From Thermoplasmatota archaeon (GTDB taxonomy: Archaea > Thermoplasmatota > E2 > DHVEG-1), in assembly GCA_016927555.1 (NCBI GenBank), contig JAFGML010000021.1, forward strand, positions 9,508 through 73,507: 64,000 nt of DNA, written 5' to 3'. The notes under the pieces were generated by a model, which had not been told where the DNA came from, made no database searches, and worked only from the letters and a program-made list of their open reading frames with translations. Of this stretch, positions 37,813 through 61,566 are shown one piece after another (the stretch's first letter is position 1; every line of letters begins with the position of its first letter). A program made the translations under genes and the position numbers.

Positions 37813-37859
37813 TCTATAGGACTCTATATAGCCCATATGAATATATATACCTCTATAGA
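37813..37859. promoter_or_regulatory. Three TCTATA(G/T)A motif copies in the divergent phoU-abrB / pstS intergenic region
   Basis: TCTATAG at 37813, TCTATATA at 37823, TCTATAGA at 37852. Read directly. Confidence 0.5.
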
Positions 37860-37861
37860 CT

Positions 37862-38932
37862 ATGGAGATAAAGTATATATTTCATGGTGAAATTGCTTGC
37901 TCGGTGATTCATATAGAATCAAAAAAAGAAAAAAACATTGGAAAATTTATCTTTGGGCTAGTTGTAGTAACCTTGTGCATTTCTCTCCTAGCAGGATGCA
38001 CGCAACAATCAGAAGGAGAAAAACCAAATCTAATACAAACTGGTTCAAGCACTGTCCTTCCCCTTGCAGTCGCCTGGGCTGAACAATTCGACCAAGCAAA
38101 TATCGCAGTCTCGGGGGGTGGCTCAAGCCATGGATTAAACGCACTGCTGCTTGGTGAAGCAGATCTTGGAGACGCAAGTCGATTAATGAAAGGATCTGAT
38201 TATGAGAAAGTGGGAGGTAACGCAGATGATGTGTATGCTAATGGCACTGCTAAAGCACCAGCAAATGGTATCTTCCCTGTGAAATGGGTGGTTGCCTATG
38301 ATGTTCTTGCTGTTGTTGTTCATAATAGCAATACCTGGGCAACCCAATTGAATTACTCACAACTCTCAAAGATTTTTACCGATGATTCCCCCGCAACATA
38401 CTGGGATGAAGTCCCTGGTTTAACTGGAGCACCTCATGAAGCGATTGAGATTTACGCTCCAGATGAAGCAAGCGGAACATACGATTATTTCTTTGAAAGC
38501 ATCATTACAGACTGGGGAAAAGACACGCAACAGATTGCTACGAGACTTGAGTTAGGTGATGGCGTGTATCATCCCAGCGCCGATGATAATGTGATATTAA
38601 ACGCTATCAAAGACAACGAGTACGCTATTGGATACTTTGGTTTTGCGTATGTCATGGAAAATCCTGGACAGGTTAAGGTTGTGAAAATCGCGAAGACTAC
38701 GACTTATGTCGAAGCGAGTTTAGACAACGTCGCAAATTATCCGATGGCTCGTCCCCTCCACATTTATACGAATGGCATCCCTGATACAACAACAGACAAA
38801 GGAAACGCCATCAACGAGTACCTCCAATACATCATGAGTGATGAAGGACAAGAGATTGTCTCCGTGGTAGGTTACGTGAAACTTGACTTAGTTGATCCAA
38901 CAATAATTCCAGATCAACTAGCAAAGTTGTAA
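37862..38932 (+). CDS. pstS: Phosphate ABC transporter substrate-binding lipoprotein PstS (set 1)
   Basis: Lipobox LLAGC, then GSSTVLPL and GGGSSHG PstS blocks. An in-frame GTG at 37904 is an alternative start giving a tidier signal peptide. Confidence 0.85.
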   Translation: MEIKYIFHGEIACSVIHIESKKEKNIGKFIFGLVVVTLCISLLAGCTQQSEGEKPNLIQTGSSTVLPLAVAWAEQFDQANIAVSGGGSSHGLNALLLGEADLGDASRLMKGSDYEKVGGNADDVYANGTAKAPANGIFPVKWVVAYDVLAVVVHNSNTWATQLNYSQLSKIFTDDSPATYWDEVPGLTGAPHEAIEIYAPDEASGTYDYFFESIITDWGKDTQQIATRLELGDGVYHPSADDNVILNAIKDNEYAIGYFGFAYVMENPGQVKVVKIAKTTTYVEASLDNVANYPMARPLHIYTNGIPDTTTDKGNAINEYLQYIMSDEGQEIVSVVGYVKLDLVDPTIIPDQLAKL

Positions 38933-38942
38933 AATCTGGATT

Positions 38943-40841
38943 GTGATACCTTCCATGAGGAGTCGGACGAATACCAAAATCTCAAAGGAAAAACAGCACC
39001 TGTTTTTCCATAAAAGAGGAATCAAAGAGCAGGCCATTGTATGGCTGCTCTTGCTCACAGCAAGTATCGCTGTTGTGGTAAGCGCAGCCATCATCTATAC
39101 ACTCATCGAAGGGTCTGCTGGTTTCTTTTTCAACCCAGCTGTTAACATCCTTGAGTTTTTCACAGGCAGTAAGTGGACTCCAAATGGAAGTAACCCACAT
39201 TTTGGGCTCCTGCCTTTGTTCTCAGGAACCCTCCTTGTCGCAGGAGGGGCTCTACTCATCGGCGCACCTTTAGGAGTTGGTGCCGCTTTATACCTCTCCG
39301 AGTTTGCAGGGAAAAAAGTACGCTCAGTCGCAAAACCCGTCATTGAGGTGCTCGCTGGTATACCCTCAATAGTCTACGGGTTTTTCGCATTACTTGTAAT
39401 CAGCCCTCTCCTACAGCAGTACTTTGGGGCGAGTTATTTTAACGCGGGAAGCGCGATTATTGTCATGGCAATCATGGTGCTTCCCATCATTGTCAGCATC
39501 TCTGATGACTCCATAAACGCCGTCCCAAAACACCTCAGAGAAGCAAGTCTTGCTATGGGAGCAACAAAATGGGAGACGTCACTAAAGGTGGTCATGCCTG
39601 CAGCATCCAGTGGTATTATCGCCTCTATTCTGCTAGGCCTTGCCAGGGCGCTTGGGGAAACAATGGTGGTAGTACTCGCAGCAGGCAGTATCGCAAAACT
39701 GACCTTGAATCCTTTTGAAGAAGTACAAACAATGACTGCGTATATCGCACAGGTGGCGACTGGCGATATCCCACCAGGGGTTGCAGTGAGCGCAGCATTT
39801 GCTGTCGGACTGGTGCTCTTCGTCATCACCTACATCATCAATCTGATTGCCGGCAAGGTTGTCCTTCGCATTAAACGAGGGGGGACAGCAGCACAGAAGC
39901 AATCACGATTAAAAAAGTTTACAAAACAAATCTTCTCAAGGATTTCCTCTGTTTGGCAGCATCTTGTACGAAGAACCCATAAAAAGACTATCACTCTGCA
40001 ACGCCGATACCTGAAGGGAAAAATCGGGATATCTGTTGTTGCCACGTGTCTGCTTTTTGCTGTTATTTTTCTTATAGTTCTTATCGCCTCAGTGTTAGAA
40101 CAAGGACTGGGTGGCATTAACTGGGGGTTTCTCTCCTCATTTCCCAGCGCATTACCCTCCAAAGCAGGAATCTATCCAGTCATTCTTGGTTCAGTGTACC
40201 TCGTCGTTCTTACCTTAGTATTTGCTGTGCCCATGGGAGTCGGTGCAGCGATTTATTTAAATGAGTTTGCGAAGGACAATCGGTACACACGGTTTCTGCG
40301 TCGCATTATTCAAAATCTTGCCGGTGTACCTTCTATTGTGTTTGGTCTGGTTGGATTAGCAGTATTTTCACGGTTGCTTGGGTTTGGACCAAGTCTTCTT
40401 ACCGGCAGTCTCACGCTTGCTATCATGATCATGCCTATGATCGTTGTCGCAACAGAAGAAGCATTGAAGGGTGTTCCAGACTCGTTTCGAGAAGCATCCC
40501 GTGGGCTTGGTGCAACAAAATGGCAGACCGTCCGTCACCATGTTCTCCCGTATGCTATTCCCGGGACACTGACTGGGATTATTCTTGCCTTGTCTCGTGC
40601 CATTGGAGAAACAGCACCGATTCTTTTTATCGGTAGCATCTTTATGAAAACAGCACCAAGTAGCATCCTTGATGGATTTCTTGCACTACCCATCACTATC
40701 TTTTATTGGACGCGACACCCAAAAGTACAATTCCATGACCTCGCAGCAAGCACCATTGTCGTGTTACTGGTCATTCTTCTCTCGATGAATCTTGTGGCAA
40801 TTATCATTCGTCAGCGATCACAATCACGGAGGGATTGGTAA
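38943..40841 (+). CDS. Fused phosphate ABC transporter permease PstC-PstA (single 632-aa polypeptide)
   Basis: Two complete permease halves, each with an EAA-type loop (REASLAMGATKWET and REASRGLGATKWQT), joined by a basic linker. Confidence 0.85.
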   Translation: MIPSMRSRTNTKISKEKQHLFFHKRGIKEQAIVWLLLLTASIAVVVSAAIIYTLIEGSAGFFFNPAVNILEFFTGSKWTPNGSNPHFGLLPLFSGTLLVAGGALLIGAPLGVGAALYLSEFAGKKVRSVAKPVIEVLAGIPSIVYGFFALLVISPLLQQYFGASYFNAGSAIIVMAIMVLPIIVSISDDSINAVPKHLREASLAMGATKWETSLKVVMPAASSGIIASILLGLARALGETMVVVLAAGSIAKLTLNPFEEVQTMTAYIAQVATGDIPPGVAVSAAFAVGLVLFVITYIINLIAGKVVLRIKRGGTAAQKQSRLKKFTKQIFSRISSVWQHLVRRTHKKTITLQRRYLKGKIGISVVATCLLFAVIFLIVLIASVLEQGLGGINWGFLSSFPSALPSKAGIYPVILGSVYLVVLTLVFAVPMGVGAAIYLNEFAKDNRYTRFLRRIIQNLAGVPSIVFGLVGLAVFSRLLGFGPSLLTGSLTLAIMIMPMIVVATEEALKGVPDSFREASRGLGATKWQTVRHHVLPYAIPGTLTGIILALSRAIGETAPILFIGSIFMKTAPSSILDGFLALPITIFYWTRHPKVQFHDLAASTIVVLLVILLSMNLVAIIIRQRSQSRRDW

Positions 40842-40844
40842 TCC

Positions 40845-41699
40845 ATGAAAAACCAACAGAACAACAAGAACAGATCACATCATCACACTGCTCAACCGAG
40901 CAATCCAACGAATAATGAGGTAGAGAGGCGACATCAGGAGGGCTACTCAGGCACTATCGGTTTGCGAGAATTAAATGTGTACTACTCTCAGAAGCATGCG
41001 ATTATCGATGTTTCCATGGATATCTTGGAAAAGAAGGTGACCGCATTTATCGGCCCAAGTGGATGTGGAAAAAGCACCCTCCTCCGGGCGCTGAACCGCA
41101 TGAACGATGAAATTGAAGGATGCCGAACAGAGGGAAAAATACTGTGGAAAGGCGTTGACATCCTTGACGTAACCGTTGATCCTGTAGCGCTGCGTCGGAA
41201 AGTCGGCATGGTGTTTCAGAAACCAAACCCGTTTCCAAAATCTGTCTATGAGAACATTGCTTATGGGCTAAAAATCCATGGCATCCATGAGAAGAAGACC
41301 CTGGATGAGCTGGTTGAAAAAAGTTTGAGAGCAGCAGCACTCTGGGATGAAGTCAGTGATCGATTGCATGAATCTGCTATGAGTCTCTCAGGAGGGCAAC
41401 AGCAACGCTTGTGTATCGCTCGTGCCCTGGCCATAGAACCTGAGGTAATCCTTATGGATGAACCCTGCTCTGCCCTTGATCCGATTGCGACAGCAAAAAT
41501 CGAGGATCTCATCCAAGAGTTGAAAAAAGACTACACCGTTATTATTGTAACCCATAACATGCAACAGGCAGCTCGAGTAAGTAATTATACTGCGTACATG
41601 TACCTTGGCAAGATGATTGAATTTGGGGAGACAAAGCAAATCTTTGAGCACCCGCGAGAGGAGCTCACAGAGAATTATATCACAGGACGATTTGGATAG
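40845..41699 (+). CDS. pstB: Phosphate ABC transporter ATP-binding protein PstB (set 1)
   Basis: Walker [10 protein letters not shown], signature [14 protein letters not shown], Walker [14 protein letters not shown]-terminus YITGRFG. Confidence 0.9.
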
Positions 41700-41709
41700 G
41701 TGAGAAGCT

Positions 41710-42360
41710 ATGGTTGAGAAGTTTCATGTGGAGTTAGAAGACCTCAAGCAAGATGTCGCGAAAATGGCAGAACTTGCGATCTTTATGCTTTCGAACTCTG
41801 TAGACGCCTTCAAAAAACTTGATGTCGAGCAAGCAGATCTCGTCGACTCAAAAAAGAAGGAACTTGCTGAGATAAAAATCACCAATGAAGAGGAGGCATT
41901 GCAGTTAATCGCCTTATATCAGCCCATGGCTCGAGACATGCGGACGATTGCCAGCTGTTTGAAAATGATTACGGATCTCTATCGTATTGGGAGGTATGGA
42001 AAAGATATCGCGAAGGTTACTAGAGAGATTTACCCAGGACCCCATATTAAAAAAATCATTAGTCTGCCACATATGAACCAGCTCGTGTGTGGAATGATTA
42101 CTGATGCACTCACCGCGTTTCGCACAGGGAATCTCTCCCTGCTGAAAGATTTCACAGAACGAGATAATGATGTCGATGAGCTGCGCTATTCGATTTTCCG
42201 TGAGTGTATTTCCTACATGATGGAAGACCCAAAGAACATCACCATTTGTACTCATTACATCATGGTCGCCCGGTACTTGGAGCGTTGTGGTGACCATGCC
42301 TGCAACATGGCTGAAGAAGTGCATTACATCGTGACTGGAGAACGGATTGAGCTATCATGA
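41710..42360 (+). CDS. phoU: Phosphate signalling modulator PhoU
   Basis: 216 aa with two PhoU repeats (YRIGRYGKDIA and ERCGDHACNMAE). Sits directly after pstB. Confidence 0.85.
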   Translation: MVEKFHVELEDLKQDVAKMAELAIFMLSNSVDAFKKLDVEQADLVDSKKKELAEIKITNEEEALQLIALYQPMARDMRTIASCLKMITDLYRIGRYGKDIAKVTREIYPGPHIKKIISLPHMNQLVCGMITDALTAFRTGNLSLLKDFTERDNDVDELRYSIFRECISYMMEDPKNITICTHYIMVARYLERCGDHACNMAEEVHYIVTGERIELS

Positions 42361-42845
42361 AGCAGACCGTCTTGTTTATTTGCTACCATAATTCTGCTCG
42401 GTCTCAGATGGCAGAAGCATTCCTCAAGACATTGTATCAAAATCGATTTGAGGCAGCTAGTGCCGGAGTAGAACCGACGCAGGTAAATCCCTATGCTATC
42501 GATGTGATGAAAGAAGTTGGTATCGATCTTTCTTCGTATCGATCAAAGAGTATCGAGGAGTTCCGAGGACAGGTATTTGATTACGTGGTGACAGTGTGTG
42601 ACCAAGCTCAGGAGAAGTGTCCGTTTTTTCCTGGGAAAACAGTACTGCACCAAGGGTTCCGTGATCCTGCAGTTGTTCAGGGTCCTTTCGAAGAAACCAT
42701 GACAGTCTTTCAGCAGGTCCGCGATGAAATACAAACATGGATTACCAAGACATTTGGAGCTGATGATGTACACTCCCAAGTACAAGAATTTACTGTTGAA
42801 GTTTCAGCATGGAAAAAATCATCTGCTTTAGGTGAGAATCAGTGA
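42357..42845 (+). CDS. arsC: Arsenate reductase / low-molecular-weight phosphotyrosine phosphatase family (thioredoxin-coupled ArsC type)
   Basis: CX5R P-loop VLFICYHNSARSQMAE plus the downstream Cys pair VCDQAQEKCPFFPG. Its ATG overlaps the phoU stop (ATGA). Confidence 0.75.
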   Translation: MKQTVLFICYHNSARSQMAEAFLKTLYQNRFEAASAGVEPTQVNPYAIDVMKEVGIDLSSYRSKSIEEFRGQVFDYVVTVCDQAQEKCPFFPGKTVLHQGFRDPAVVQGPFEETMTVFQQVRDEIQTWITKTFGADDVHSQVQEFTVEVSAWKKSSALGENQ

Positions 42846-42903
42846 ATAGATCTAAGCATGAAAACTGGTGTTTTTTTCCGCTGATGAGCAGTAAGTATAT
42901 AGG

Positions 42904-42969
42904 TCTATATAGAAAATGGAGTTTATATTGATAATTTATTTATGTATAGAGAAAATAAAGATGTATAGA
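42904..42969. promoter_or_regulatory. TCTATATAGA palindrome plus two TATAGA half-sites upstream of AbrB-PhoU copy 2
   Basis: 10-bp perfect palindrome at 42904-42913. TATAGA at 42955-42960 and 42964-42969. Confidence 0.5.
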
Positions 42970-43096: not shown

Positions 43097-44107
43097 ATGG
43101 AAACTCGTAAAGTGCAAATAACAGGCAAATCAACATATATTATTTCACTTCCTAAAACATGGGTCAACAAGGTAAAAATACGCAATGGTAACAGTGTTAT
43201 TTTGATACCACGCTCTGATGGAACATTACTGATTAATCCAAAACTCAATGAGACAAAAGAGGTATCCAGCAACGCTATCGCGGTAGACACCCTCGATATG
43301 GAAACCTTGTTTAGGAAGTTCATCGGGGCGTACCTCGCTGGCTTTGACGTCATTGAAATCAACAGCTCTGAGAAGATGTCCCCGGCGGTTCGTCAGCAGA
43401 TTCGTCGGATGACTCAAAGCGTCATTGGCCCTGAAATTATCGATGAAACCAGTACCTCAGTGAAGATACAAGATCTGCTGGATTCAAGCGACCTGTCCAT
43501 GATCCAGGGGCTGAAACGGATGTACGTGATCACCCGCGGGATGCATCGGGATGCAGTCATCGCTTTGGAGCAACGAGATACGGAGCTTGCGGAGGATGTT
43601 GAATCCAGGGACAATGAAGTCGACAAGTTTTACTGGATGATCGCCAAGCAGTATAATCTCGTCCTTAATGATATGTTTTATGCAGATAAAATGAATGTGA
43701 AACCTCAAGAGGTGCTAGGCTACCTGTTGGTTGCGCGTTCTATTGAGCGTATTGCAGATCATGCGAAACGACTCGCAAGCAACGTACAACTCTTGAAGGG
43801 GAAAATCGATATTCTGCCTAGGATATTAGAGGCGAGCGATGCGATTTTAAAGGAGTTTGACGAGGCGGTGAACGCGTTTCATCGAAATAAATTTGAGCAT
43901 GCCAACCAGGTCGTCATCAAGGCACGGTCTCTTGGAAAGCTCACCCAGCAGTTGACGCAGGAGATTTTAGGATTAAAACTAGATGCGGCGACAATAGTCT
44001 CCCTGGCGTATATCGTGGATAGTCTTGAGCGGACGCGGGCGTACGTGCTCGATATCGCGGAGACTGCGATTAACCATCAGTTTACGACAGCGATGGTAAC
44101 CACTTAA
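43097..44107 (+). CDS. AbrB/SpoVT-domain + tandem PhoU-domain regulator (copy 2)
   Basis: METRKVQITGKSTYIISLPKTWVNKV plus two PhoU repeats (ERIADHAKRLA, ERTRAYVLDIAE). ATG 43097 follows TAGGGGAA. Confidence 0.75.
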   Translation: METRKVQITGKSTYIISLPKTWVNKVKIRNGNSVILIPRSDGTLLINPKLNETKEVSSNAIAVDTLDMETLFRKFIGAYLAGFDVIEINSSEKMSPAVRQQIRRMTQSVIGPEIIDETSTSVKIQDLLDSSDLSMIQGLKRMYVITRGMHRDAVIALEQRDTELAEDVESRDNEVDKFYWMIAKQYNLVLNDMFYADKMNVKPQEVLGYLLVARSIERIADHAKRLASNVQLLKGKIDILPRILEASDAILKEFDEAVNAFHRNKFEHANQVVIKARSLGKLTQQLTQEILGLKLDAATIVSLAYIVDSLERTRAYVLDIAETAINHQFTTAMVTT

Positions 44108-45184: not shown

Positions 45185-45506
45185 AGCAACGATATCTACG
45201 TTGTATGATATAGTGCTTTTCTTAGGTTGATCTGAGTGGTTCGGTTACAACAGTGCCTCCATGTATATAGAACTATATACTACATAGGGTCATCTATATT
45301 GTATGGTGAAAAAGTATATATTTTTTGGAGTGATGTGATGGTTAGGAGTGCGTTTACTCCACACCCAAAAGCATGAGTAGTATTTGAGGGAAAAGAAACT
45401 CTTACCCGGACCGGACCAGTAAAGCCTATAGAGGGGGGCTCCAAGGGACGTGGGGAGTTACCTGAACGATTCACTGCCCACGACGCGCCTCTCCTTTTCT
45501 TTTTTT

Positions 45507-45845: not shown

Positions 45846-46037
45846 CCCTCAATGTTCCCATCTACATATCCTATATAGTGATATTGTTTCTATAGTTTTC
45901 TATATATGGTGAAGAGAAGAGTGTTCTACTGGTTTTTTCCTCGCTCTCCACGACGCATGTCACTACTTAGCATTCATTGTATTTAAATGCAGCGAGGAAA
46001 AGTAGCATGATGAAAAAAAATTTGATGAGTGATTTAT

Positions 46038-46244: not shown

Positions 46245-46349
46245 GTGTCCTGTTTTGTTGTACAACAGTCAAAAGAAGTCAAACATGATAAAGTCTTTCC
46301 ACATACAATATGAAGGCTCTATGAGTCTATAGTGTTCTATTGTTTTTCT

Positions 46350-51294: not shown

Positions 51295-53091
51295 ATGGTT
51301 CCAGAGCAACAAAAGGAGGCATTCTGTATTCCACGCTTTGAACATCTCAGCAATCTCTTCAAGAAAAAAGACGACTCTGAGCAACAAATCACCCGACTGC
51401 TTGATACCAAATACCGAGATCTTCTGAAAAAGAAAGCTGAGTCACTCGAACAACACTTCCTCCCAAAAGAAGAAATCTCAGAAAAAATCATTCAACAAGA
51501 AGAAATCAGCTTCATGAGAAGAGAATTCGAACGAAACAAAAGCACCGTCAACATCACGTATCCTGTCAACCCACCCTTCGCTTTTGTGAACATCCTCTTC
51601 AACGAACAAGCTGGGGAATTCCACTACCTGCTCAAAGAACCAAAACTCAAAGAAGCTGAGGTACACCACCTTGACCTCATCAAACAAAAAATAGAGGCAA
51701 CCATGGATGAAGAAGACCTTCCCATCGACGAGGAAGGAACCTTCACTGTCTCAAAGGAACTCAAAGCATACCTACAGAAACGATTCCTCGATGTCATCGA
51801 CTTGTACGACATTGCTGTTGATGAGAAACGACGACCCATTCTCTTGTATTACCTACAGAAAGACCTCCTTGGACTTGGTAGAAGCGACGCAGTCATCAAA
51901 GACCTGTTCGTCGAAGACATCGGCTGCAATGGGCCAAAAACACCCCTCTACCTGTACCATCGTGTGTTTGGCTCCATGAAGACCAACATCACCTACCCTA
52001 GTGAACTTGAACTGAACAAGTTCATCCTGAAGCTGGCGCAAACCTCTGGCAAACACATCAGCGTCTATCAACCAATCCTAGATGCAGTCCTTGCTGACGG
52101 CAGTAGAATCAACCTCACCTTAGGTTCTGAGGTCACAAGGAAAGGCTCGACGTTCACGATACGGAAATTCAGCTATGACCCGATCTCACCGATTGACTTG
52201 CTCAGGTTCGGCTCAATCTCCACCCTGCAGCTGGCGTACTTCTGGCAGCTCATCGAACATAAGAAATCCATTCTGATGAGTGGGGGAACCGCTTCAGGGA
52301 AAACCACGCTGCTCAACGCCCTGTGCATGTTCATCAGACCAGAGGATAAAATCGTCTCCATAGAAGACACCCCAGAGATCCACATCGACCATCAGAACTG
52401 GATCCAATCAGTGGCACGAAAAGGATATGGGAAAATGATGGGGGTGTCTGGCATCTCAGGGATATCAGGAATCTCAGGAATCTCCTCCTCAAGCGGCGGG
52501 CCTGGGTCTATTGATATGTTTGATTTACTTGTCGCTGCCCTGCGTCAACGACCAGAGTACATCATCGTTGGGGAAATACGAGGCAGAGAAGCCTTCACCC
52601 TCTTCCAAGCCATCGCCGTTGGCCACTCCTCAATGAGCACGGTGCATGCTGGGTCTATCGAAGAACTCCTCCACCGGGTGGAAAACGAACCGATGAACAT
52701 CCCCCGTGTTTTGTTCCAAAGCATTGACGCGGTCGCCTTCCAAGGACAAGTCATCGCCAACGGCAAACGCGTCAGACGAGTCAAAAACATAGTGGAAGTC
52801 CTTGAAATCGACCCTGATACCAACAACCTGCTCACGAACACCGCGTTCCACTGGAACCCCAAGGGTGACTTCTTCCACTACAACGGCAGAAGCTTCATTG
52901 TGGAAAAAATCGCTCGAGACACAGGGAAAGACTCCGATAAAATCATGGAGGAGCTCACCAGAAAAGAACACTACCTGCAACTCATGAACAAGAAAAACCT
53001 GACGTACTACAAAGACGTCAGCAAAGCCATCAACATGTACTATGTCGACCCACTGAAAGCAACCATGGACCTTGAAGCAACCCTGAGGTAA
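51295..53091 (+). CDS. FlaI/ArlI-PilB-type secretion ATPase (type IV filament assembly)
   Basis: Walker A SGGTASGKTTLLNAL, Asp box IVSIEDTPEI, Walker B/His box RQRPEYIIVGEIRGREA...GHSSMSTVHA. Unusual GVS(GIS)4SSSGGPGS insert. Confidence 0.85.
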   Translation: MVPEQQKEAFCIPRFEHLSNLFKKKDDSEQQITRLLDTKYRDLLKKKAESLEQHFLPKEEISEKIIQQEEISFMRREFERNKSTVNITYPVNPPFAFVNILFNEQAGEFHYLLKEPKLKEAEVHHLDLIKQKIEATMDEEDLPIDEEGTFTVSKELKAYLQKRFLDVIDLYDIAVDEKRRPILLYYLQKDLLGLGRSDAVIKDLFVEDIGCNGPKTPLYLYHRVFGSMKTNITYPSELELNKFILKLAQTSGKHISVYQPILDAVLADGSRINLTLGSEVTRKGSTFTIRKFSYDPISPIDLLRFGSISTLQLAYFWQLIEHKKSILMSGGTASGKTTLLNALCMFIRPEDKIVSIEDTPEIHIDHQNWIQSVARKGYGKMMGVSGISGISGISGISSSSGGPGSIDMFDLLVAALRQRPEYIIVGEIRGREAFTLFQAIAVGHSSMSTVHAGSIEELLHRVENEPMNIPRVLFQSIDAVAFQGQVIANGKRVRRVKNIVEVLEIDPDTNNLLTNTAFHWNPKGDFFHYNGRSFIVEKIARDTGKDSDKIMEELTRKEHYLQLMNKKNLTYYKDVSKAINMYYVDPLKATMDLEATLR

Positions 53092-53097
53092 CCACTG

Positions 53098-54027
53098 ATG
53101 AAACAACGCCGTACGAAGAAAGAGCCTTCTTTGAAAAAACCAGTCAGTGCACTCCTCGTGGAACGCTACAAAGCGTTCAGCTACCGTCTCTTCGGCAAAC
53201 ACGTGTTCACTACAGAGAAGACTGGGGCATTGTCTGAAAAACTCAAAATGGCAAACATGCGTTACACACCATCGGTATTCTACTCAACACTGCTGACCAC
53301 AGGCATACTCATCACAGTTCTTTCACTCATCGTCTTCAGCTTCCTGTTTCATTTTCTCCTAACGATAGACATGTGGCTTTTGTACTCCCTTGCGCTAACC
53401 GCGGTGACTACGACAGTAACCCTTGGGATGTTCTTCTTCGTCATGAACTCGAAAATCTCCTCACGGAAATCGCAAATCGACCACGAACTGCCCTTCGTCC
53501 TCAGCGAGCTGTCCATTCTCGCAAGCACGGGGCTGACCCCCATTAAAATCATGCGGCACATGGCACAGCGTCACGGTAACCCAGCGATGACCTCAGAATT
53601 CAGAAAAATCATATCAAAAATCGACGTGGAAGGAAAAGACATCATCACCGCGATGAGTGAAACCGCAAAGGAAACACCCTCGCCACTGTTCCGGGAGACA
53701 CTCTGGGACCTCTGCAACATGATTCACCAGGGAGGAGACCTGGATGCATACCTACGTTCAAAGGCAGACATCACCCTGCAGCTGAAGCGAGATATCCAAA
53801 AAGAATTCATAGAGAAACTGGCGACCTACTCCGAGATGTACTCAAGCTTGGTCCTCATCGGCGTACTGTTTCTTGGGATTGCAGCATTCTTGCTTGATGC
53901 GATGCAATCCACAATAGGACCACTCACCGCTGACTCCTTACTGCTCATGCTCTCATACTTAATCATACCTGCGGTCATCATTGGTGTGAATGCTATCGTC
54001 TCTCTGGCGTATGCGAAGAGCGGGTGA
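53098..54027 (+). CDS. Type IV filament platform protein, half-size (single T2SSF domain; FlaJ/TadB-like)
   Basis: One T2SSF-type cytoplasmic domain (ELPFVLSELSILASTGLTPIKIM...GGDLDAYL) flanked by TM segments. Confidence 0.7.
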   Translation: MKQRRTKKEPSLKKPVSALLVERYKAFSYRLFGKHVFTTEKTGALSEKLKMANMRYTPSVFYSTLLTTGILITVLSLIVFSFLFHFLLTIDMWLLYSLALTAVTTTVTLGMFFFVMNSKISSRKSQIDHELPFVLSELSILASTGLTPIKIMRHMAQRHGNPAMTSEFRKIISKIDVEGKDIITAMSETAKETPSPLFRETLWDLCNMIHQGGDLDAYLRSKADITLQLKRDIQKEFIEKLATYSEMYSSLVLIGVLFLGIAAFLLDAMQSTIGPLTADSLLLMLSYLIIPAVIIGVNAIVSLAYAKSG

Positions 54028-54034
54028 GTAAACG

Positions 54035-55432
54035 TTGCGCTTTCACACCATCTCCTTGAGTGTAGCATTCTTCCTTCTCCTCTGTCTTCCCTCCAGCATC
54101 ACCGCACAAGAAGATACCACTCCACCAGTGATTATTAGTGTTTCCCCTGCCGAGGCCACAACCATAGGTAACCAAACACCACAAATCATGGTTCAGTACG
54201 CAGATGAATCAGACATCGACCTGAGCACTGTTAGAATCATCGTCGATCAAATAGATGTCACAGAGTGGGAGGAAACCTCGATAACAGACACCTCTGTTTT
54301 GTATAAGGTTCCGCAGATCCTCAGACTCCAAGACGGTAATCATTCCGTGTTTATTGAGGTGGCAGATACACAAGGGAACCGTGCGACAAAAACCTGGGTG
54401 TTTCTCGTTGACACAACACAACCAACACTCCAAGGAGAAAGCCTGGACCTCTTCACCATCGTCACCTTTTTCATCTACGGAGCACTCATCAGCGCAGTCC
54501 TCTTCATTTTTTATATTTTATACCTGAGGAAAACACGGAGGTTCACGTTCAGAAAGTTCTTTGCACAACATCCCATACAAAAAGAAATCATCACCCTCTA
54601 CATTCCCCTCATCCTTGGTTTTTTTATCATCCTCTTTGGTCTTGCTTGGACCTCAAGAAACCTGCCTGACATCCCGTTTTCCCCGGAGTACGTCTTTTCT
54701 GCCGGAGTGCTCATTGCCCTTGGACCATTCACACTATCATCGATAGCTGAAAAACGCACTATCAATCGGTACGAGCAAGCGTTCGCACAGTTTCTCTTTG
54801 AAATGGCAGATGCTATGCGCGGGGGTCTTGACCCCACCAAAGCACTCATTGAGCTTGCAAAGGGAAATCAAGGAATCCTCAGAGACCATCTGAAGAAAGC
54901 AGCGGAGAACATCAAACTCGGTCGACCCTTTGATGAGGTGATGCAAGCCATGGTCCGTCCTATTAAAAGTGATTTGGTGAAACGGTATGCGACTTTGATT
55001 GGTGACACCTCAAAAATCGGTGGGGAAACCTCACTGGTCATTTACAGAACCGCAAAGGATATGGATGACTTTATCAAAATCAACCAGGAGCGCAGACGGC
55101 AGCTCACCGCTCAGGTCACCACGATTTACATCGCCTTTGCCGTCTTACTTGTCATCCTGTATCAGTTGATCACGATGTTTCCTTCAATGGGGTCATTGAA
55201 CCTCTCTTTGCTTGGTGCCACTGATTTGGATTCCACAGAGACAAGCTCATCGATCATCCGCATGAGTAGTGAAACCATGAAACGCAGGTTCCTTCATCTC
55301 ATGATGATTAACTCCCTGGGCACAGGGACGCTCATGGGGATGCTTGTTGATGGAAAAATCAAATACGGGCTTATTCATTCACTCGTCCTGATTAGTATAT
55401 CAGTGGTGTTCTTCGCACTTCTCATCCTTTAA
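54035..55432 (+). CDS. Type IV filament platform protein, half-size (T2SSF domain) with a Sec-type signal and an N-terminal Ig-like ectodomain
   Basis: TTG start 7 nt after GGGTGA. Signal LSVAFFLLLCLPSSITAQ. A ~110-aa beta-rich domain (PPVIISVSP...TWVFLVDTTQPT), TM segments, then a T2SSF block (FEMADAMRGGLDPTKALIELA...GRPFDEVM). Confidence 0.7.
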   Translation: MRFHTISLSVAFFLLLCLPSSITAQEDTTPPVIISVSPAEATTIGNQTPQIMVQYADESDIDLSTVRIIVDQIDVTEWEETSITDTSVLYKVPQILRLQDGNHSVFIEVADTQGNRATKTWVFLVDTTQPTLQGESLDLFTIVTFFIYGALISAVLFIFYILYLRKTRRFTFRKFFAQHPIQKEIITLYIPLILGFFIILFGLAWTSRNLPDIPFSPEYVFSAGVLIALGPFTLSSIAEKRTINRYEQAFAQFLFEMADAMRGGLDPTKALIELAKGNQGILRDHLKKAAENIKLGRPFDEVMQAMVRPIKSDLVKRYATLIGDTSKIGGETSLVIYRTAKDMDDFIKINQERRRQLTAQVTTIYIAFAVLLVILYQLITMFPSMGSLNLSLLGATDLDSTETSSSIIRMSSETMKRRFLHLMMINSLGTGTLMGMLVDGKIKYGLIHSLVLISISVVFFALLIL

Positions 55433-55476
55433 AAAAAAGTAAAAATGTACACAGAATTTTTTTTAAACCCAGGGTG

Positions 55477-56736
55477 TTACTCAGTGATTGCTCCTAGGAA
55501 ATCACAATAGGGGCAGCGAAGTATTCCCTCTGTATCATTGAGTGTTGTGGTAAAAGTCTTCTGACACATAGGGCAGGAGACTTCAACAGCAGGAGAGGGT
55601 AGCCGAATAGAGGTTACCTGTGCGTCCTTTGTATTTCTCACAGCTGAGGATTTTCTTGGTGAGGCCCGAGGTGCCTTGGTCTTTTGTGATGAAGTTTTTT
55701 TATGAGACATAGTAGTTTTTTGTGTATTTGAGGATGGTTCAGACGATGCTGTTGTCGTTATTTTCTGTATGGGTACACACACCAACTCAGGAGCCACAGC
55801 ATCCTCCGGAATAGTGATTTTCTGTTCTTTTACCATGGAGAGGACTTCACCAACGACGACTTCATCAATCATGATGGAACGCTTCTTTGCAGCGTAATCA
55901 ATGACAACATCAGCAAGCTTGAGGAGATGACGAGGGTTGCCAGCCACATCTAAATTGAGAAAAGCGACGCCCTCGGGGGTGAACGGGTACAAAGGGTCCA
56001 CATCATCAACGAGTCGTTTCTCTAAGAGTCTTTTGGCAATCATCAACTGTGCTTCTTCATCGCTGAGCGGTGGGATTTGGATTTTTCGGTTTATCCGTTC
56101 ATGCAGGGATTTGTGCTGCTCCATGAGTGATTCGAAATACTGCTGATCACTGCTGATCATAATCATCACGCCTTGGTCAATGTGGTCAATCATGACGTGC
56201 AGTGTGTGTAAGAACCGCTCAGCATCCTCCACCCGTGCAAGGTGATGAAAATCATTTATTAACAGAAACGAAGGGGCATTATTGTTTAAAGCATCAGCGA
56301 TGATTCTACCGGCTTTATCAGGATCGTACTGCTTCTCTGCTTTCTTAAGTTTCTTTTTAACCGACTTGTACCACTTCGGAGCAGAGAACAGACGAGTGAA
56401 GAAACCAAGGTGGCTTTGAAGAAGGAGTAGATGCAGGATGCCTTCGACGACCCAGCGGGTCTCAAAAGTCATGTTCTGAAACACATAGAACGCGTTGTTG
56501 CGTTTTGCTTCATTTGCCACCAGCAGCAGTCGCTCGGTTTTCCCAGCACCAAGCCCACCAAGCACTGCAACAACCGCTTTGTTTTCCTTGTAGAATACTT
56601 CCTCGCGCATTCGAGCTAAATCTTCATCAACCCGCTGAACGACATGGAAGATGTCAACGTTCTCCAAACTCTCACTGGAGAGATCTCGGAACGGATTGCT
56701 ACTTAACCCATAGCGTTCATATCCTGTTTTCTGCAT
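55477..56736 (-). CDS. ExeA/AAA_22-like P-loop ATPase with a disordered Ser/Thr/Lys-rich linker and a C-terminal zinc ribbon
   Basis: YGLSSNPF N-terminus, Walker A GGLGAGKTERL, Walker B-like LLINDFHH, C-terminal CPMCQ...CPYCD. Confidence 0.6.
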   Translation of the reverse strand: MQKTGYERYGLSSNPFRDLSSESLENVDIFHVVQRVDEDLARMREEVFYKENKAVVAVLGGLGAGKTERLLLVANEAKRNNAFYVFQNMTFETRWVVEGILHLLLLQSHLGFFTRLFSAPKWYKSVKKKLKKAEKQYDPDKAGRIIADALNNNAPSFLLINDFHHLARVEDAERFLHTLHVMIDHIDQGVMIMISSDQQYFESLMEQHKSLHERINRKIQIPPLSDEEAQLMIAKRLLEKRLVDDVDPLYPFTPEGVAFLNLDVAGNPRHLLKLADVVIDYAAKKRSIMIDEVVVGEVLSMVKEQKITIPEDAVAPELVCVPIQKITTTASSEPSSNTQKTTMSHKKTSSQKTKAPRASPRKSSAVRNTKDAQVTSIRLPSPAVEVSCPMCQKTFTTTLNDTEGILRCPYCDFLGAITE

Positions 56737-56752
56737 AGTGCTTGTTCACTTC

Positions 56753-57367
56753 CTACGTGACCCGTGCGCGAAGATCGATGCTGATCTTTTTGCCATCAAA
56801 GGTGTAGTAAATATTATCATTGAAGGAATCACGGTTCATCCATTTGGAAATCCGAATATACCGTGCGATTCCCTTTGTCGTCTCTTTGGATAAAAAATGA
56901 ATAATACCATCAGCAAGGTGACCTATGGTGATCTGGACTTTCTCATCAAGCATCCCGTACTCCAGTGAGAGCAGGAGAATGGTGTTGTGTTGTTTGCACA
57001 GACTATCCAGCTCCTCAACAATGGTTCGGACTTCTGATAAGGTCTTGTCAAGAACCAAATAGGAAAACGAGTCGATGATAAGCACCGCATCTCTCCTGAT
57101 GAAATCCTTCCAGTGGCGATGGGAACGCTCTTCAACAATTTGACACTTGGTTGAATCGGTGTACTGCGACAGTTCAGCGACAACCTCTTCTTTTGCCCGC
57201 GAGGCGATGTACACAACCTCTTTTTTGTGTTTCACGGCAAGCCCTGCTACAGTTTGAATAAAGATCGTCTTAATGGGGTCAATCGTGCCTTGGACGACAA
57301 CAATGTTCCCATTTGGGATTTCTTGTATGAATTCGTTTAATCCAGCTATGTGAATAGGAATCCCCAT
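56753..57367 (-). CDS. KaiC/RecA-superfamily FlaH(ArlH)-like protein with a degenerate Walker A
   Basis: GLNEFIQEIPNGNIVVVQGTIDPIKTIF (GxxGxGKT degraded to GTIDPIKT) and a VLIIDSFS Walker B-like strand. ATG 57367 preferred over the longer track ORF. Confidence 0.55.
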   Translation of the reverse strand: MGIPIHIAGLNEFIQEIPNGNIVVVQGTIDPIKTIFIQTVAGLAVKHKKEVVYIASRAKEEVVAELSQYTDSTKCQIVEERSHRHWKDFIRRDAVLIIDSFSYLVLDKTLSEVRTIVEELDSLCKQHNTILLLSLEYGMLDEKVQITIGHLADGIIHFLSKETTKGIARYIRISKWMNRDSFNDNIYYTFDGKKISIDLRARVT

Positions 57368-57452
57368 AGGAGCCAATATCCTCTTTTTTATTATCGCTAA
57401 GAATACTATATTTCTTAAAGATATTGAACATAATCTATGGACCGCCTTAGTT

Positions 57453-57462
57453 TCTATATAGA
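57453..57462. promoter_or_regulatory. TCTATATAGA palindrome in the divergent flaH-like / pilin-like intergenic region
   Basis: The same perfect 10-bp palindrome as at 42904. A further TATAGA at 57483-57488. Confidence 0.5.
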
Positions 57463-57529
57463 CATACATACCATGCATACATTATAGACATCATTTTTAA
57501 GATACGGAAAAAAGTACGTAAATCTACCT

Positions 57530-58423
57530 ATGAGAAAGTGTACTTACGAGGAGCAAGCAGTCTCTATTATCATTGGAGCGTTAATGCTTACCGTCATTGT
57601 CGTGTCAGCAGCAACAGCGTTTGCAGTGTTCACCAGTCAAAAACAAAAGGAGCTGCAGGAAGCACAGTACGCCTCCTTACAACGAGATCTCGAACAGCTA
57701 GCCATTACAAGGATCTCCACCATCCACTACAACAGCTCAAATCATTTAGAAAACATTAGTTGTAGCATCGTCAGTCTCCACGCAGATGACTCACGCATTA
57801 TTTCAATGAGTCTGAACGGCAATTACCTCAGGTATTTTCACCTCACCAGGCAAGACTACACACTAGAAGAGTGGAAAATCAATTCAACAACAGGTGAATA
57901 TGTCTTACAGAGTGTAACAGACAGTCAGGGTGCCGTGATCTATAATGGAAGCACAAGTTTTAACACATCGAATGAAAAATATTCATACTACCCCTTGACA
58001 GTGTTATCTCGAGAACGAGTGCTTCTTACTATAGACAATGCATCGAGCACAAGTGTATTCCTTATTCGGCATATTCTTAGCAATGATGCAATTACTTTGT
58101 CGGTGTACACAAGTTTAACCAATGAGTTTTCAAAGACGTTCTATCCACCGACAGCAATCATCCGTCTCATTACTGAGTCACAGTGGAATAGCACAAGTAA
58201 TGACTATGAATCAGTCATCATCTTGGATGGCTCCCTCTCAGATCATCCTTCACTAGATGCCTACATTGTATCATGGATATGGACAGTCGATGGAAATCCA
58301 CTGAGCACATCGGGAAGAAAAATCCGTGCACCAGATAGCCTTCTCATAGGGAACCATAACATCACCTTGAGTGTCACTGATAATTTTGGCATGAACAGCA
58401 CCAGCACAATCACATACCCCTAG
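57530..58423 (+). CDS. Type IV pilin-like protein (class III signal peptide) with a C-terminal PKD-like domain
   Basis: N-terminus [34 protein letters not shown] (archaeal pilin N-domain type). Many N-x-S/T sequons. C-terminus [10 protein letters not shown]...[12 protein letters not shown] (PKD-like). Confidence 0.7.
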
Positions 58424-59928: not shown

Positions 59929-60130
59929 GCATGGGCGCTCACCTGCTTGTTCCACATCCCCACCCCTATGGAGAGGACTAGTCTCTATATAATATATGTG
60001 CAGAATAGATATAAACTAACAAGAGGATGATTAGATGCATACACTCTCCTCCTAAGGAAAGTACGTCTTCATCCCACCCCATCTCCCTACCCGTACTTTC
60101 CCTTTTTTTTTTATTTACGCATAAAGTGAG

Positions 60131-60904
60131 TTATACTTTGTTTTTTTCAGGTTCGTAGTACCGATTCTGACAGCATCCATCAGTGAGAGAAAACTCCACC
60201 ATGGTCTTCATCTCCCCGGTTCGCACATTCATCACTTGTACTTTAATCTGGTGGTCGTCGATGTCAATGACATTAAACGTGTTGCCGAAATGCGCCCGGG
60301 TGCGGTTACAGGAAAACGTGCCTGCGTTGACCAAGAGTGTCTTATGGATTTTCACGGCCCAGGGGACATGACGATGACCCATCAACACGAGTGGGACTTC
60401 TTTGCGTAGAATCAAATCCAGGGTTTCCCCAGCATCCTCAATAATGTTGGTTTCTCGCCCTGAGCCAGGTACCGGAACCAGATGATGATGGAACCCCACT
60501 ATCGTAAGTTTCCCTGCAGTAACACATTCTTCGATCTTTCGATACCGCCCTCGTCCTAGACGCCCGTCGTCCTTGTCAGGCTCGCTGGATGCTAGACCAA
60601 TCAATGTCACCTGTGGTAATGTATGAACAAAATCAGTTTCACCGAAAAACTCAGGAAACAACTTGAACCCCAGGTTCCGCTCATCATGGTTCCCCGGCAC
60701 CACAAATAACCGACTTGTGATTTCCTGGGTTTTCTTGGCTGCTAGCTCGTATTCGGACAACAGTCCATCCGTGGTGAGATCACCAGAGACAAACACAAAA
60801 TCACAGTGAAGGCCGTTAAGCATCCCAACTGCCTTGTCAAAAATCTTTGGGTTGAAATCCGTCCCTTGCGTAGAATGAATATCAGAGATATGACCAATTC
60901 TCAT
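60131..60904 (-). CDS. Calcineurin-like metallophosphoesterase
   Basis: MRIGHISDIHS, SGDLT, GNHD, GFHHH and GHRH motifs. Confidence 0.8.
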   Translation of the reverse strand: MRIGHISDIHSTQGTDFNPKIFDKAVGMLNGLHCDFVFVSGDLTTDGLLSEYELAAKKTQEITSRLFVVPGNHDERNLGFKLFPEFFGETDFVHTLPQVTLIGLASSEPDKDDGRLGRGRYRKIEECVTAGKLTIVGFHHHLVPVPGSGRETNIIEDAGETLDLILRKEVPLVLMGHRHVPWAVKIHKTLLVNAGTFSCNRTRAHFGNTFNVIDIDDHQIKVQVMNVRTGEMKTMVEFSLTDGCCQNRYYEPEKNKV

Positions 60905-61120
60905 AGAGCTAGGAACACGTTGGAATATTAAAAGATTGTATGTTCTACTACAATCTGCTGAGATACGCCTGATGATAAAAATATTTTTAAGGTGATATTA
61001 ATTGTAAAATAACTGCACCGGAGTAGGCAAAAAAATATGTTACAAATGTAACGATTATTATTATGAGGAAAACATTTAAATTCTGGTCCCCTATGTATAT
61101 TTATTTGACGGAGGTATAAT

Positions 61121-61459
61121 ATGAAGACAGTAAAATATTTAGGTATCATAGGTATATTAGCTCTCCTTCTGATTCCCACCAGTTTAGCAGTGGCACTACC
61201 ACAAGAACAAGAGGAACAACCAACAGACCTTGGCTGGACGTTTCTTCGAGGATTTATCACAAAACCGAGTCTGACCAACGCTGGTCAAGATGTTCAGTTC
61301 CGAGCCATCCTTGTCCACTACCGCACCCATATCTTCGGTGTCAGCCAACGAGGAGTTCTCCGAGGATTTCAAAAAATCGTCCTCCCAAATGATTACACGG
61401 GCATCTTAGGCAACCACTACGTGTTTGCGCGATTTGACGGACGAATGACGTTTCTGTAA
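61121..61459 (+). CDS. Small secreted protein of unknown function (paralog of 15810-16157)
   Basis: Signal peptide. Shared blocks with 15810: TD(I/L)G.T(Y/F)(I/L)RG.ITKP.L.N.G.D..FR...VHY.T...G....G.L..FQK..L.ND..G..G......FARF.G. Confidence 0.6.
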   Translation: MKTVKYLGIIGILALLLIPTSLAVALPQEQEEQPTDLGWTFLRGFITKPSLTNAGQDVQFRAILVHYRTHIFGVSQRGVLRGFQKIVLPNDYTGILGNHYVFARFDGRMTFL

Positions 61460-61566
61460 TCCAAGGGAAAAAAAAGAGGAGTCTTGTTTTCTTTTTCTTT
61501 CTTCACCAATTACATGTACTAGGGGTTATATAGAAGAAAGCGAATTCGAGAGGGTGGGATGGTCCT

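Follow-up and report, generated by a model that had tools for sequence, protein, structure and literature searches.

Phased TATA-like boxes at the phosphate-acquisition and filament promoters of a Thermoplasmatota archaeon: a candidate operator for AbrB-PhoU regulators

The Pho boxes of the bacterial PhoB/PhoR and PhoP/PhoR systems are CTGTCAT repeats of ~10–11 bp that lie upstream of, or overlap, the core promoters of pst genes, and their regulator gene is linked to pst in a pathway that includes PhoU. Swapped-hairpin regulators of the AbrB/SpoVT/MazE type bind several phased AT-rich sites as dimers or tetramers, and "phosphate uptake regulators" is the annotation given to the AbrB-PhoU proteins, with no binding site defined. 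To our knowledge, archaea are without PhoR and PhoB, and the pho boxes of Halobacterium are the only promoter elements that have been reported. According to the description in PMC6560208, which cites Furtwangler 2010, the Pho boxes of the H. salinarum pst promoters are essential for induction and are ascribed to PhoU regulators. The present study concerns a short TATA-like box that recurs in a 64,000-nucleotide stretch of DNA from a Thermoplasmatota archaeon (hereafter the window; C25:9508-73507 of the assembly GCA_016927555.1, labelled G000, which holds 1.47 Mb in 57 contigs and is 85% complete). The window carries a phosphate island with two Pst transporters (pst1 and pst2), two AbrB-PhoU genes (abrB-phoU1 and abrB-phoU2) and a type IV filament, or pilus, module. 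A specific, conserved and phased array of boxes, placed next to the transcription factor B (TFB) recognition element (BRE), is present at the phosphate and pilus promoters of this island. The boxes are best read as a dedicated cis-element of phosphate-acquisition promoters, an archaeal Pho box that would serve as operator for the AbrB-PhoU regulators; from the sequence comparisons below, we put the probability of this reading at roughly 0.7. Gene starts, TATA boxes, BREs and transcription starts are predictions throughout, genes were called with a crude dicodon caller and missed genes added manually, and the relatives compared are metagenome-assembled genomes (MAGs), labelled G for genomes and L for loci.

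The likeness to the pst1 and pst2 Pho boxes of H. salinarum, drawn via the description in PMC6560208 alone, is that in either case a short element occupies promoters of phosphate ABC transporters in archaea: here the boxes are found at pstS1, pstCA2, abrB-phoU1 and abrB-phoU2, and in relatives also at the gene of the PiT permease. The phylum is another one, however, the arrays reach up to five boxes in a divergent promoter, and the regulon would extend to a second Pst transporter joined to a type IV filament module. With the bacterial Pho system the island shares ~10–11 bp repeats upstream of or overlapping the pst core promoters, a regulator gene linked to pst and a pathway with PhoU, whereas the repeat is CTATAG, the promoter is an archaeal BRE/TATA promoter and AbrB-PhoU, a fusion that forms a one-component regulator, is the candidate for binding; Pfam scans of the island open reading frames (34.8–63.8 kb) found neither a response regulator of the OmpR family or any other kind nor a histidine kinase such as PhoR. 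AbrB-PhoU resembles the AbrB, SpoVT and MazE proteins in its N-terminal PF04014 match. AbrB specificity is loose, in contrast to the well-defined conserved palindrome found here, and the sensor domain is PhoU, unlike the GAF domain of SpoVT or a toxin partner. The C-terminal 200 residues of AbrB-PhoU form a six-helix bundle like bacterial PhoU, which is without a DNA-binding domain and works through PhoR and PstB; a canonical phoU is also present in the operon. A further parallel, as cited in PMC6737238, is TFB-RF1 of Pyrococcus furiosus, one of several comparable archaeal activators with sites right before the BRE; its site lies just upstream of a weak BRE/TATA before an ABC-transporter operon. 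That regulator belongs to another protein family, and activation in the present case is suggested by position.

The box is one short TATA-like palindrome, (T)CTATAG(A) or (T)CTATATAG(A), best written as (T)CTATA(TA)G(A). The 33 CTATA cores of the island intergenic DNA, when oriented, give the consensus tCTATA(T/G)A(g), and many are perfect palindromes of either form. A preliminary description of this DNA had listed 18 positions of TCTATA(T/G)A. Nine of these carry the exact octamer (37823, 37852, 42904, 45264, 45899, 49763, 57453, 59984 and 61527), eight have TCTATA followed by two other letters (TCTATAGG, TCTATACA three times, TCTATAGT twice, TCTATATT and TCTATAAT), and the site placed at 42955 was off by 12 nt, the actual box being TGTATAGA at 42943-42950. 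The palindromes pointed out there were correct (TCTATATAGA at 42904 and 57453, TCTATAGA at 37852 and 49763). Confinement to intergenic DNA nearly holds, apart from an overlooked exact copy within pstCA2 (46735); box 45293 falls inside a doubtful small open reading frame, and box 57453 counts as intergenic on condition that translation of the KaiC-like gene begins at 57367, a start that is supported by the G052 orthologue. Likewise, the statement that essentially none occur in the first 37 kb is roughly right, as the 4.5 kb of intergenic DNA there contains 13 CTATA/TATAG cores, including TCTATAGA at 16609. For the window as a whole, 18 strand matches to TCTATAKA compare with 2.2 ± 1.8 expected (maximum 8 in 100 shuffles).

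The alternative that the motif is a flavour of the generic TATA/BRE, or the AT-rich composition of a low-GC horizontally acquired island, draws on the 35% GC of the island intergenic DNA, on a mild genome-wide enrichment of TATAG at promoter distance and on single sites elsewhere that resemble ordinary TATA boxes, e.g. TTTATATAG. The counts speak against it. Core density is 16.5 per kb in the island intergenic DNA (34 in 2.06 kb), 2.9 per kb between the genes of the first 34.7 kb and ~1 per kb within coding DNA. The island accounts for 1.3% of the intergenic DNA of the genome, and yet contains 31 copies of CTATA against 4.4 expected from other intergenic DNA (p = 2e-16), 19 of TATAGA against 1.6 expected from the remaining intergenic DNA, and four of CTATATAG against 0.03, with just two in all other intergenic DNA. 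Genome-wide, 20 of the 58 strand matches to TCTATAKA lie on this contig, which makes up 5% of the genome. When the island intergenic DNA itself (2.0 kb) was subjected to 2000 dinucleotide shuffles, cores numbered 34 against 10.2 ± 3.1 and CTATATAG five against 0.1, counts that were reached in 0 of the 2000 shuffles, while the canonical TTTATA was not enriched in the same DNA (4 against 4.2). Between the genes of the island the core thus reaches 5–7 times its density in other intergenic DNA and 3 times that in shuffles of the island sequence itself.

A generic promoter model, trained by expectation maximization with zero or one occurrence per sequence on 741 upstream regions outside the island, returned the consensus AAAnnTTTATATA, i.e. 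AAA-NN-TTT(A/T)(T/A)A(T/A)A, which is a normal archaeal BRE/TATA located 25–60 nt before start codons; Shine-Dalgarno signals (GGAGG/GGTGA) are found at -15 to -6 in these regions. In this model C has a frequency of 0.02–0.03 at the positions where the box carries C, and the C and G flanks of the box are conserved across genera, in GC-rich genomes too. Clusters and phased pairs outside the island are few, and they adjoin a thermosome gene, an RPA-like gene, peptidases and other secreted proteins. The box is consequently distinct from BRE/TATA and limited to a functional gene set; the word is rare outside the island, rather than equally frequent upstream of unrelated genes, which bears out the earlier proposal of an operator as opposed to a generic TATA/BRE. 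The reading from promoter flavour or composition is largely refuted and is the least probable of those considered here. Additional regulon members elsewhere in G000 were rejected, since the outside clusters and phased pairs show no link to phosphate. A weight matrix built from the sites of relatives was also dropped for regulon calling: 22 of its 193 hits at >= 9 bits fall in the island, and many ordinary TATA boxes reach similar scores.

Promoter by promoter, the boxes and core elements of the window are as follows, with the strand stated where one applies.

37798..37813, minus strand: predicted BRE/TATA of abrB-phoU1, AAATACTTATGAATCG (generic model score 7.1).
37813..37820: box TCTATAGG (CTATAG), which abuts the abrB-phoU1 BRE and is the invariant CTATAGAAA block of the 47-sequence alignment described below.
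37823..37832: box TCTATATAGC, a CTATATAG palindrome 10 bp from the 37813 box.
37852..37867: box TCTATAGA and degenerate CTATGGAG (reverse complement CTCCATAG), upstream of the pstS1 BRE/TATA.
37869..37884, plus strand: predicted BRE/TATA of pstS1, TAAAGTATATATTTCA, from the generic model; its AAAGTATATATT block is near-invariant in the 47 regions.
42895..42969: abrB-phoU2 promoter array, with boxes GTATATAG (42895), TCTATATAGA (42904), TGTATAGA (42943) and TGTATAGA (42962), a degenerate box TTATATTG (42923) and a predicted TATA AATTTATTTATG (42933).
45264..45300: boxes TATATAGA (45264), CTATATAC (45273) and TCTATATT (45293), upstream of a winged helix-turn-helix (wHTH) gene pair.
45870..45906: boxes CCTATATAG (45870), TCTATAGT (45889) and TCTATATA (45899), spaced by 19 and 10 bp, in the promoter of a small membrane-protein gene.
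46316..46333: degenerate box CTCTATGA and box TCTATAGT, upstream of a DUF1508 gene.
49728..49770: pstCA2 promoter, with a predicted TATA CTATTATATAA (49728-49738, minus strand) and boxes TGTATAGA (49744) and TCTATAGA (49763).
51239..51280, plus strand: pilus-ATPase promoter, with boxes ACTATATAG (51239), GGTATAGT (51248) and TCTATACA (51259), a predicted TATA TTTTTAACA (51272) and the ATG at 51295.
57453..57502: divergent promoter of the KaiC-like and pilin genes, with boxes TCTATATAGA (57453) and ATTATAGA (57481) and a predicted pilin TATA TTTTTAAGA (57494).
59984..59991, plus strand: isolated TCTATATA between convergent PP2C and metallophosphoesterase genes.
61527..61534, minus strand: TATATAGA (plus strand: GTTATATAGAAG) upstream of a nitroreductase gene, ATG 61567.

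At abrB-phoU1, the pilus ATPase, pilin and pstCA2 the proximal box ends 5–7 nt upstream of the predicted TATA and abuts or overlaps the BRE, and at pstS1 a degenerate proximal box keeps the same geometry relative to the predicted TATA. The arrays comprise 2–5 copies, with further copies about one or two helical turns away (~10-bp phase). By prediction, the box is separate from the TATA that drives the gene at these five promoters, while at abrB-phoU2 and in some GC-rich relatives a box is itself the best TATA candidate. The boxes thus stand upstream of separately conserved predicted BRE/TATA elements and in phased arrays, not at the fixed -26 position by which the preliminary description would have been refuted. 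At the pilus, pilin and pst2 promoters the BREs downstream of them look weak (ACATCA, AACATC, CAAGAC). At pstS1, the ATG at 37862 precedes a stop codon in relatives and a GTG 22–24 nt downstream of the TATA is conserved, and GTG 37904, close to which the predicted transcription start falls, is therefore likely to be a leaderless start. The pair CTATATA..CTCCATAG is seen again in L104, L169 and the phoD promoter of Halococcus.

The last two sites on the list had been counted as members of the motif set, and probably neither is part of the regulon. Site 59984 lies between convergent genes, and its membership of the regulon is doubtful and probably to be denied. Downstream of it come an inverted repeat, AAAGTACG...CGTACTTT, and a run of ten T (~60049-60110), and the segment 59929-60130 could be a small transcript; no Rfam match was obtained for the surroundings, and the terminator scan was empty. 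Site 61527 is a single copy without the C flank on the sense strand, scores 6.9 in the generic model with a predicted start ~12 nt before the nitroreductase ATG, and is probably the ordinary TATA box of that gene.

Repeats that are AT-rich and phased at ~10 bp could in principle be architectural DNA for bending or for the positioning of histones or Alba, and an AbrB-PhoU homologue is found among the chromatin-associated proteins of Thermococcus kodakarensis (PMC7325993). Periodic AT alone, however, does not need the exact letters, flanking C and G included, that are kept over large distances, and the repeats are restricted to phosphate genes; an architectural role is accordingly a remote prospect.

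In other genera the boxes are kept at the orthologous promoters of pst1, abrB-phoU1, abrB-phoU2, pst2, the pilus-ATPase operon and the KaiC-like/pilin pair, amid non-coding DNA that has diverged around them, and the earlier suggestion of one regulon thereby gains support. For the pstS1/abrB-phoU1 intergenic region, 47 distinct orthologous regions were aligned, the regulators of which are 52–77% identical to that of the window. They share an ungapped core of ~80 bp, aAATATATACTTTaTCTACATATaCTATAgTgaTATATATAG-N13-ATAtAG-nn-CTATAGAAAantTTAaaAA, in which the pstS TATA (reverse strand) is followed by five boxes and then by the BRE/TATA of the regulator gene; the centre-to-centre spacing of the boxes is ~9, 11, 20 and 8 bp, and towards pstS the last box of the array, TCTACATA, is a variant with one mismatch. 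The abrB-phoU2 module, present in eight genomes, reads CTATATA-nnn-CTATATAG-N9-CTATAT(T/A)GATAATTTTTATAT(G/C)TATAG and lies 100–190 nt before the ATG, with CTATATAnnnCTATATAG-N9-CTATATTGATAATTTTTATATGTATAG conserved in the eight.

Orthologues of the pilus ATPase were found in 13 genomes of the family at 69–87% identity (paralogues <= 48%), and pstS2 adjoins the gene in nine of them, the remaining loci ending short of that side. In 11 genomes from several genera the promoter has the form CTATA(G/T)-N3-4-CTATATAC-N5-6-TTTTTTAATA; of 12 promoters, nine have the proximal core beginning 14 nt ahead of the TATA, and seven have a distance of 9 nt between the two cores. A paralogous pilus locus on contig C30 was discarded as a box promoter, having two TATA-like sites without the box-TATA architecture. 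For pstCA2, boxes stand at the orthologous place in G022. Between the KaiC-like and pilin genes, the orthology of which was checked through the flanking genes (77% and 61% identity), boxes occur in three genera: TCTATATAGA and TTATAGAC followed by ATCATTTTTAAGA in G000, AAGTATATAGAAGTATATAG at the same place in G022, and TCTATAGAA..TCTATATAGAACTATAT followed by ATTTTAAGA in G052. The wHTH pair offers no such comparison, as no homologue of its wHTH143 protein, and hence no orthologous promoter, was found in the syntenic islands.

These alignments also bear on the idea that the boxes are variant TATA boxes of a divergent tandem paralogue of the TATA-binding protein (TBP), with a basal promoter class of their own. 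The box is palindromic as well as TATA-like, the island is poor in canonical TTTATA, and G000, G004, G022 and G052 have a second, divergent TBP gene beside the canonical one (in G000 at C27:8072-9141, the divergent member scoring 60–65 bits per repeat), where most other Thermoplasmatota checked have one TBP; in some relatives, moreover, a box occupies the TATA position of a leaderless gene. Up to five boxes, however, lie between two conserved canonical BRE/TATA elements and cannot all be TATA boxes, and at the pilus-ATPase promoters a conserved TTTTTTAATA follows 14 nt after the start of the proximal core. Boxes also stand before abrB-phoU in nine genomes that have only one TBP (G037, G105, G076, G063, G043, G055, G064, G083 and G175). 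As single-TBP genomes retain the boxes, this explanation was rejected and is rated very unlikely. A TFIIB domain gave no hit in the 85%-complete G000 assembly.

The protein side of the proposed operator is the AbrB-PhoU family, whose members are otherwise known as predicted transcription factors or chromatin-associated proteins (PMC6316755, PMC7325993); no paper defining a binding site was found in the literature searched. AbrB-PhoU1 consists of an N-terminal SpoVT/AbrB domain, an alpha/beta middle part and a C-terminal six-helix PhoU bundle, as judged from Pfam, NCBIfam, the structural model and a fold search. Its AlphaFold model has a predicted local distance difference test score of 83.6, with the C-terminal half superposing on solved PhoU structures at template modelling scores of 0.80–0.84 (1t72, 4q25, 2i0m), and the model, which has four short strands in residues 5–48, also shows weak similarity to SpoVT and to an AbrB-like DNA-binding protein from archaea. 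Between the two paralogues the AbrB domains hardly differ (MEIRRVQITGGSSYVITLPK vs METRKVQITGKSTYIISLPK), and throughout the phylum RKVQxTGGS(S/T) is kept as a motif.

The boxes follow the abrB-phoU genes across the phylum and into Halobacteria, which, together with the autoregulatory position of the boxes and the co-occurrence described below, indirectly favours these proteins as the candidate binders that they had been taken for. Among all loci with the pstS1 array, abrB-phoU1 is the only regulator gene in common: in G004, G005 and G014 the array is present with abrB-phoU1 as the sole local regulator, without abrB-phoU2, the wHTH gene, pst2 or the pilus module, and in G023 it stays with abrB-phoU1 though the divergent partner is PiT and not pstS. 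More distant homologues from many families (28–58% identity) have CTATAG or CTATATAG within 100 nt upstream in 13 of 39 cases, as against 13 of the 741 generic G000 regions, a control drawn from one genome (odds ratio 28, p = 1e-11), and the core in 30 of 39, as against 27% of generic regions. Among loci of at least 55% GC the core is found in 12 of 16, and the other four genes closely follow another gene, probably in an operon. A composite of box, BRE and TATA, TATAG-AAA(A)-N2-3-CTTAT(T/A)A, recurs in orthologues, in the distant homologues L078, L080, L081, L083 and L087, which come from several families, and in Halostagnicola.

Gene content across genomes points the same way. AbrB-PhoU was found in 169 of 201 sampled Thermoplasmatota genomes, 111 of which also have PstB, five genomes having PstB only and 27 neither (odds ratio 10, p = 2e-7). 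PstB without AbrB-PhoU was seen in three genomes among 16 checked, and in two of these the pst operon is cut by a contig end. Six genomes have both abrB-phoU2 and the pilus/pst2 module, 12 have neither, and two, both fragmented genomes, have abrB-phoU2 only (Fisher p = 7e-4). In G167 (L157, C79, 7360-7680), the third of the genomes with PstB but no AbrB-PhoU, the pst operon is divergent from a stand-alone AbrB gene of 62 aa, with a triple ATACAAAT repeat and no CTATAG array in the DNA between them. Similarly, homologues with a VQKTGTST N terminus (L096 in G196, L105 in G203) are preceded by TGTATATA or TGTATGTA repeats instead of CTATAG. Variant AbrB domains and variant repeats may thus covary, judging from very few cases.

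It is also conceivable that the boxes are a true phosphate operator with a binder other than AbrB-PhoU, either the island wHTH or a winged-helix protein of the Lrp, TrmB or ArsR type encoded elsewhere. The island wHTH protein (44753-45184) has boxes in its own promoter, and a wHTH gene is divergent from the AbrB-PhoU gene at some haloarchaeal loci. Yet the haloarchaeal loci with a divergent wHTH gene are those with few or no boxes, the boxes track abrB-phoU across phyla even without an adjacent pst, and the syntenic islands of G004, G005, G014, G022, G023 and G024, all of which keep their boxes, are without a wHTH143 homologue. That protein was rejected as the binder on this ground, and a different binder in general is unlikely, though less so than any of the other alternatives discussed.

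Beyond the Thermoplasmatota, a tblastn search of PLSDB returned 31 haloarchaeal plasmids with full-length homologues at 19–29% identity, annotated as "phosphate uptake regulator PhoU" and adjoining pstS, phoX, phoD, metallophosphoesterase, EEP-phosphatase and arsR/LMW-PTP genes (LMW-PTP, low-molecular-weight protein tyrosine phosphatase). Boxes of the form CTATAG or (G)TATATAG precede pstS, phoD, phosphoesterase and AbrB-PhoU genes on these plasmids. The Natronomonas pharaonis plasmid PL131 (L160/L172) has the gene order of the window, pstS-pstC-pstA-pstB-phoU-AbrB-PhoU-LMW-PTP, and, ahead of pstS, the perfect 10-bp tandem ATGTATATAGATGTATATAG, which precedes the predicted TATA of that gene by ~75 nt. 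Halostagnicola carries TTCTATAGATGAATACTTATTTATAT ahead of the regulator gene, like CCTATAGAAATACTTATGAA of the window, with the box sequence CTATAGATGAATACTTAT; Haladaptatus has ATATATAGATATAGTCGGTTTTATTG; and in Halococcus TTCTATATCTCTCCATAG stands ahead of phoD, which recalls CTCCATAGTCTATAGA at pstS1 of the window and similar pairs in two other lineages. Homologues with a divergent N terminus (VQLSGGTT; Haloferax mediterranei) have few or no such boxes.

Several observations weigh against an AbrB-PhoU operator, and to the single-genome control and the second TBP gene given above the following are to be added. The box is TATA-like and the information in a single site is low, such that a weight matrix cannot part boxes from ordinary TATA elements genome-wide. 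The abrB-phoU2 palindrome is itself the best TATA candidate of its promoter, and some GC-rich relatives have a box at the TATA position of a leaderless gene (TCTATATAGA at -35 to -26 from the ATG in L104, and similarly in L099); part of the box signal could therefore be core-promoter sequence. In a blind scan of five genomes with CTATAKNNNNCTATA, about 9–10 of 22 hits fell within phosphate islands, whereas over eight genomes this strict two-box pattern is no commoner than a reversed-pattern control, and in such scans only the location of the hits is informative. Finally, 58 of the 201 genomes have AbrB-PhoU without PstB detectable at E <= 1e-60. AbrB-PhoU is therefore not strictly a pst regulator and may also control PiT or other genes.

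The gene content attributed to the phosphate island at 34.8–61 kb was borne out by Pfam and NCBIfam, and the island reaches further to the left than described, its real start being ~3 kb earlier, at the PiT/DUF47 genes. The genes are listed below.

34807..36763, plus strand: PiT (PHO4) phosphate permease and DUF47/PhoU_div protein (Pfam), the true left edge of the island.
36772..37767, minus strand: abrB-phoU1, the candidate box-binding regulator (Pfam PF04014 E=3e-10, PF01895 E=6e-26), with its start at ATG 37767 from orthologue alignment.
37904..42845, plus strand: pst1 operon of pstS1, fused pstCA, pstB, phoU and an LMW-PTP/ArsC-like phosphatase gene (Pfam; NCBIfam PhoU).
43097..44107, plus strand: abrB-phoU2, the second AbrB-PhoU regulator (Pfam), 36% identical overall to AbrB-PhoU1.
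44425-45184, minus strand: wHTH gene pair with boxes upstream.
45507-45845, minus strand: small membrane-protein gene (112 aa) with boxes in its promoter.
46038-46265, minus strand: DUF1508 gene with boxes in its promoter.
46350..51039, minus strand: pst2, comprising a 1122-aa PstC-PstA fusion and PstS2 (Pfam), with orthologues beside the pilus ATPase in 11 genomes.
51295..58423, mixed strands: type IV filament module (Pfam), with orthologues in G022, G052 and others.

The filament module consists of the ATPase, two T2SSF platform proteins, a STAND-like ATPase (minus strand), the KaiC-like protein (minus strand) and the pilin-like protein; a second pstB, the PP2C phosphatase and the metallophosphoesterase are further genes of the island. 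Sequence inspection found no boxes in the DNA upstream of PiT in G000, whereas PiT is preceded by boxes in G004, G022 and G023. Homologues of the 112-aa gene adjoin abrB-phoU2 in five other genomes, and those of the DUF1508 gene do so in G022, and both genes are candidates for conserved regulon members. Close relatives of the AbrB-PhoU protein are all from uncultured Thermoplasmatota or "Thermoplasmatales" MAGs obtained from sediments and lakes. No Rfam family was matched at 34–64 kb.

Two further observations were made outside the island. At window positions 16550-16616, far from the phosphate genes, a low-GC stretch of ~760 bp in which no gene was called holds two CTATAG palindromes, ACTATAGC and TCTATAGA, at a distance of 60 bp. 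In G004 (L066/L067, C10, ~16430 of the joined 40-kb stretch), two tandem copies of CTATATAG, 10 bp apart, are located upstream of an ACR3-type arsenite efflux gene, and LMW-PTP/ArsC-like genes end the pst operons both here and in haloarchaea; together these suggest that arsenate handling is tied to the phosphate regulon.

Under the proposal that the boxes are AbrB-PhoU operators, the swapped-hairpin AbrB domains of dimeric or tetrameric AbrB-PhoU would bind them, with oligomers occupying several phased boxes cooperatively. AbrB-PhoU1 would serve pst1 and its own gene, and AbrB-PhoU2 the accessory pst2/pilus module and its own gene. By analogy with the bacterial protein, which communicates with PstB, the PhoU domain would report phosphate status. 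For the pilus, pilin and pst2 promoters we lean slightly towards activation, through recruitment of TFB and TBP, over repression, because the BREs look weak, the boxes lie just upstream of them in a TFB-RF1-like manner, and the haloarchaeal pho boxes are reportedly needed for induction. At the promoters of the regulators themselves the overlap of boxes with BRE or TATA would be expected to provide autoregulation, and this overlap fits autorepression. Pst1, pst2, the type IV filament module and several small genes would in this way be coupled in one phosphate regulon without PhoR and PhoB.

A wider reading, which we offer tentatively and would not yet back at even odds, is that a one-component phosphate switch, ancient and pan-archaeal, has CTATAG / CTATATAG as its operator. 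TATA-mimicking boxes beside BRE/TATA, or replacing it in some lineages, would let AbrB-PhoU cooperate or compete with TBP and TFB depending on the phosphate status that its PhoU domain senses. In this Thermoplasmatota family AbrB-PhoU2 would have recruited a type IV filament machine, a pilin-like PstS2 and the giant PstCA2, so that phosphate starvation would switch on a "bindosome"-like capture apparatus at the surface.

The locus and its relatives supply a concrete consensus, a phased architecture abutting the BRE, a candidate protein and a predicted regulon. They add the conserved inclusion in that regulon of the pst2/type IV filament module, which co-occurs with the second AbrB-PhoU paralogue. 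The prediction that follows is that phosphate controls a type IV pilus-like machine that is joined to a second Pst transporter, which suggests a part for surface filaments in nutrient capture, and the box could serve for the annotation of phosphate regulons in uncultured archaea directly from their genomes.

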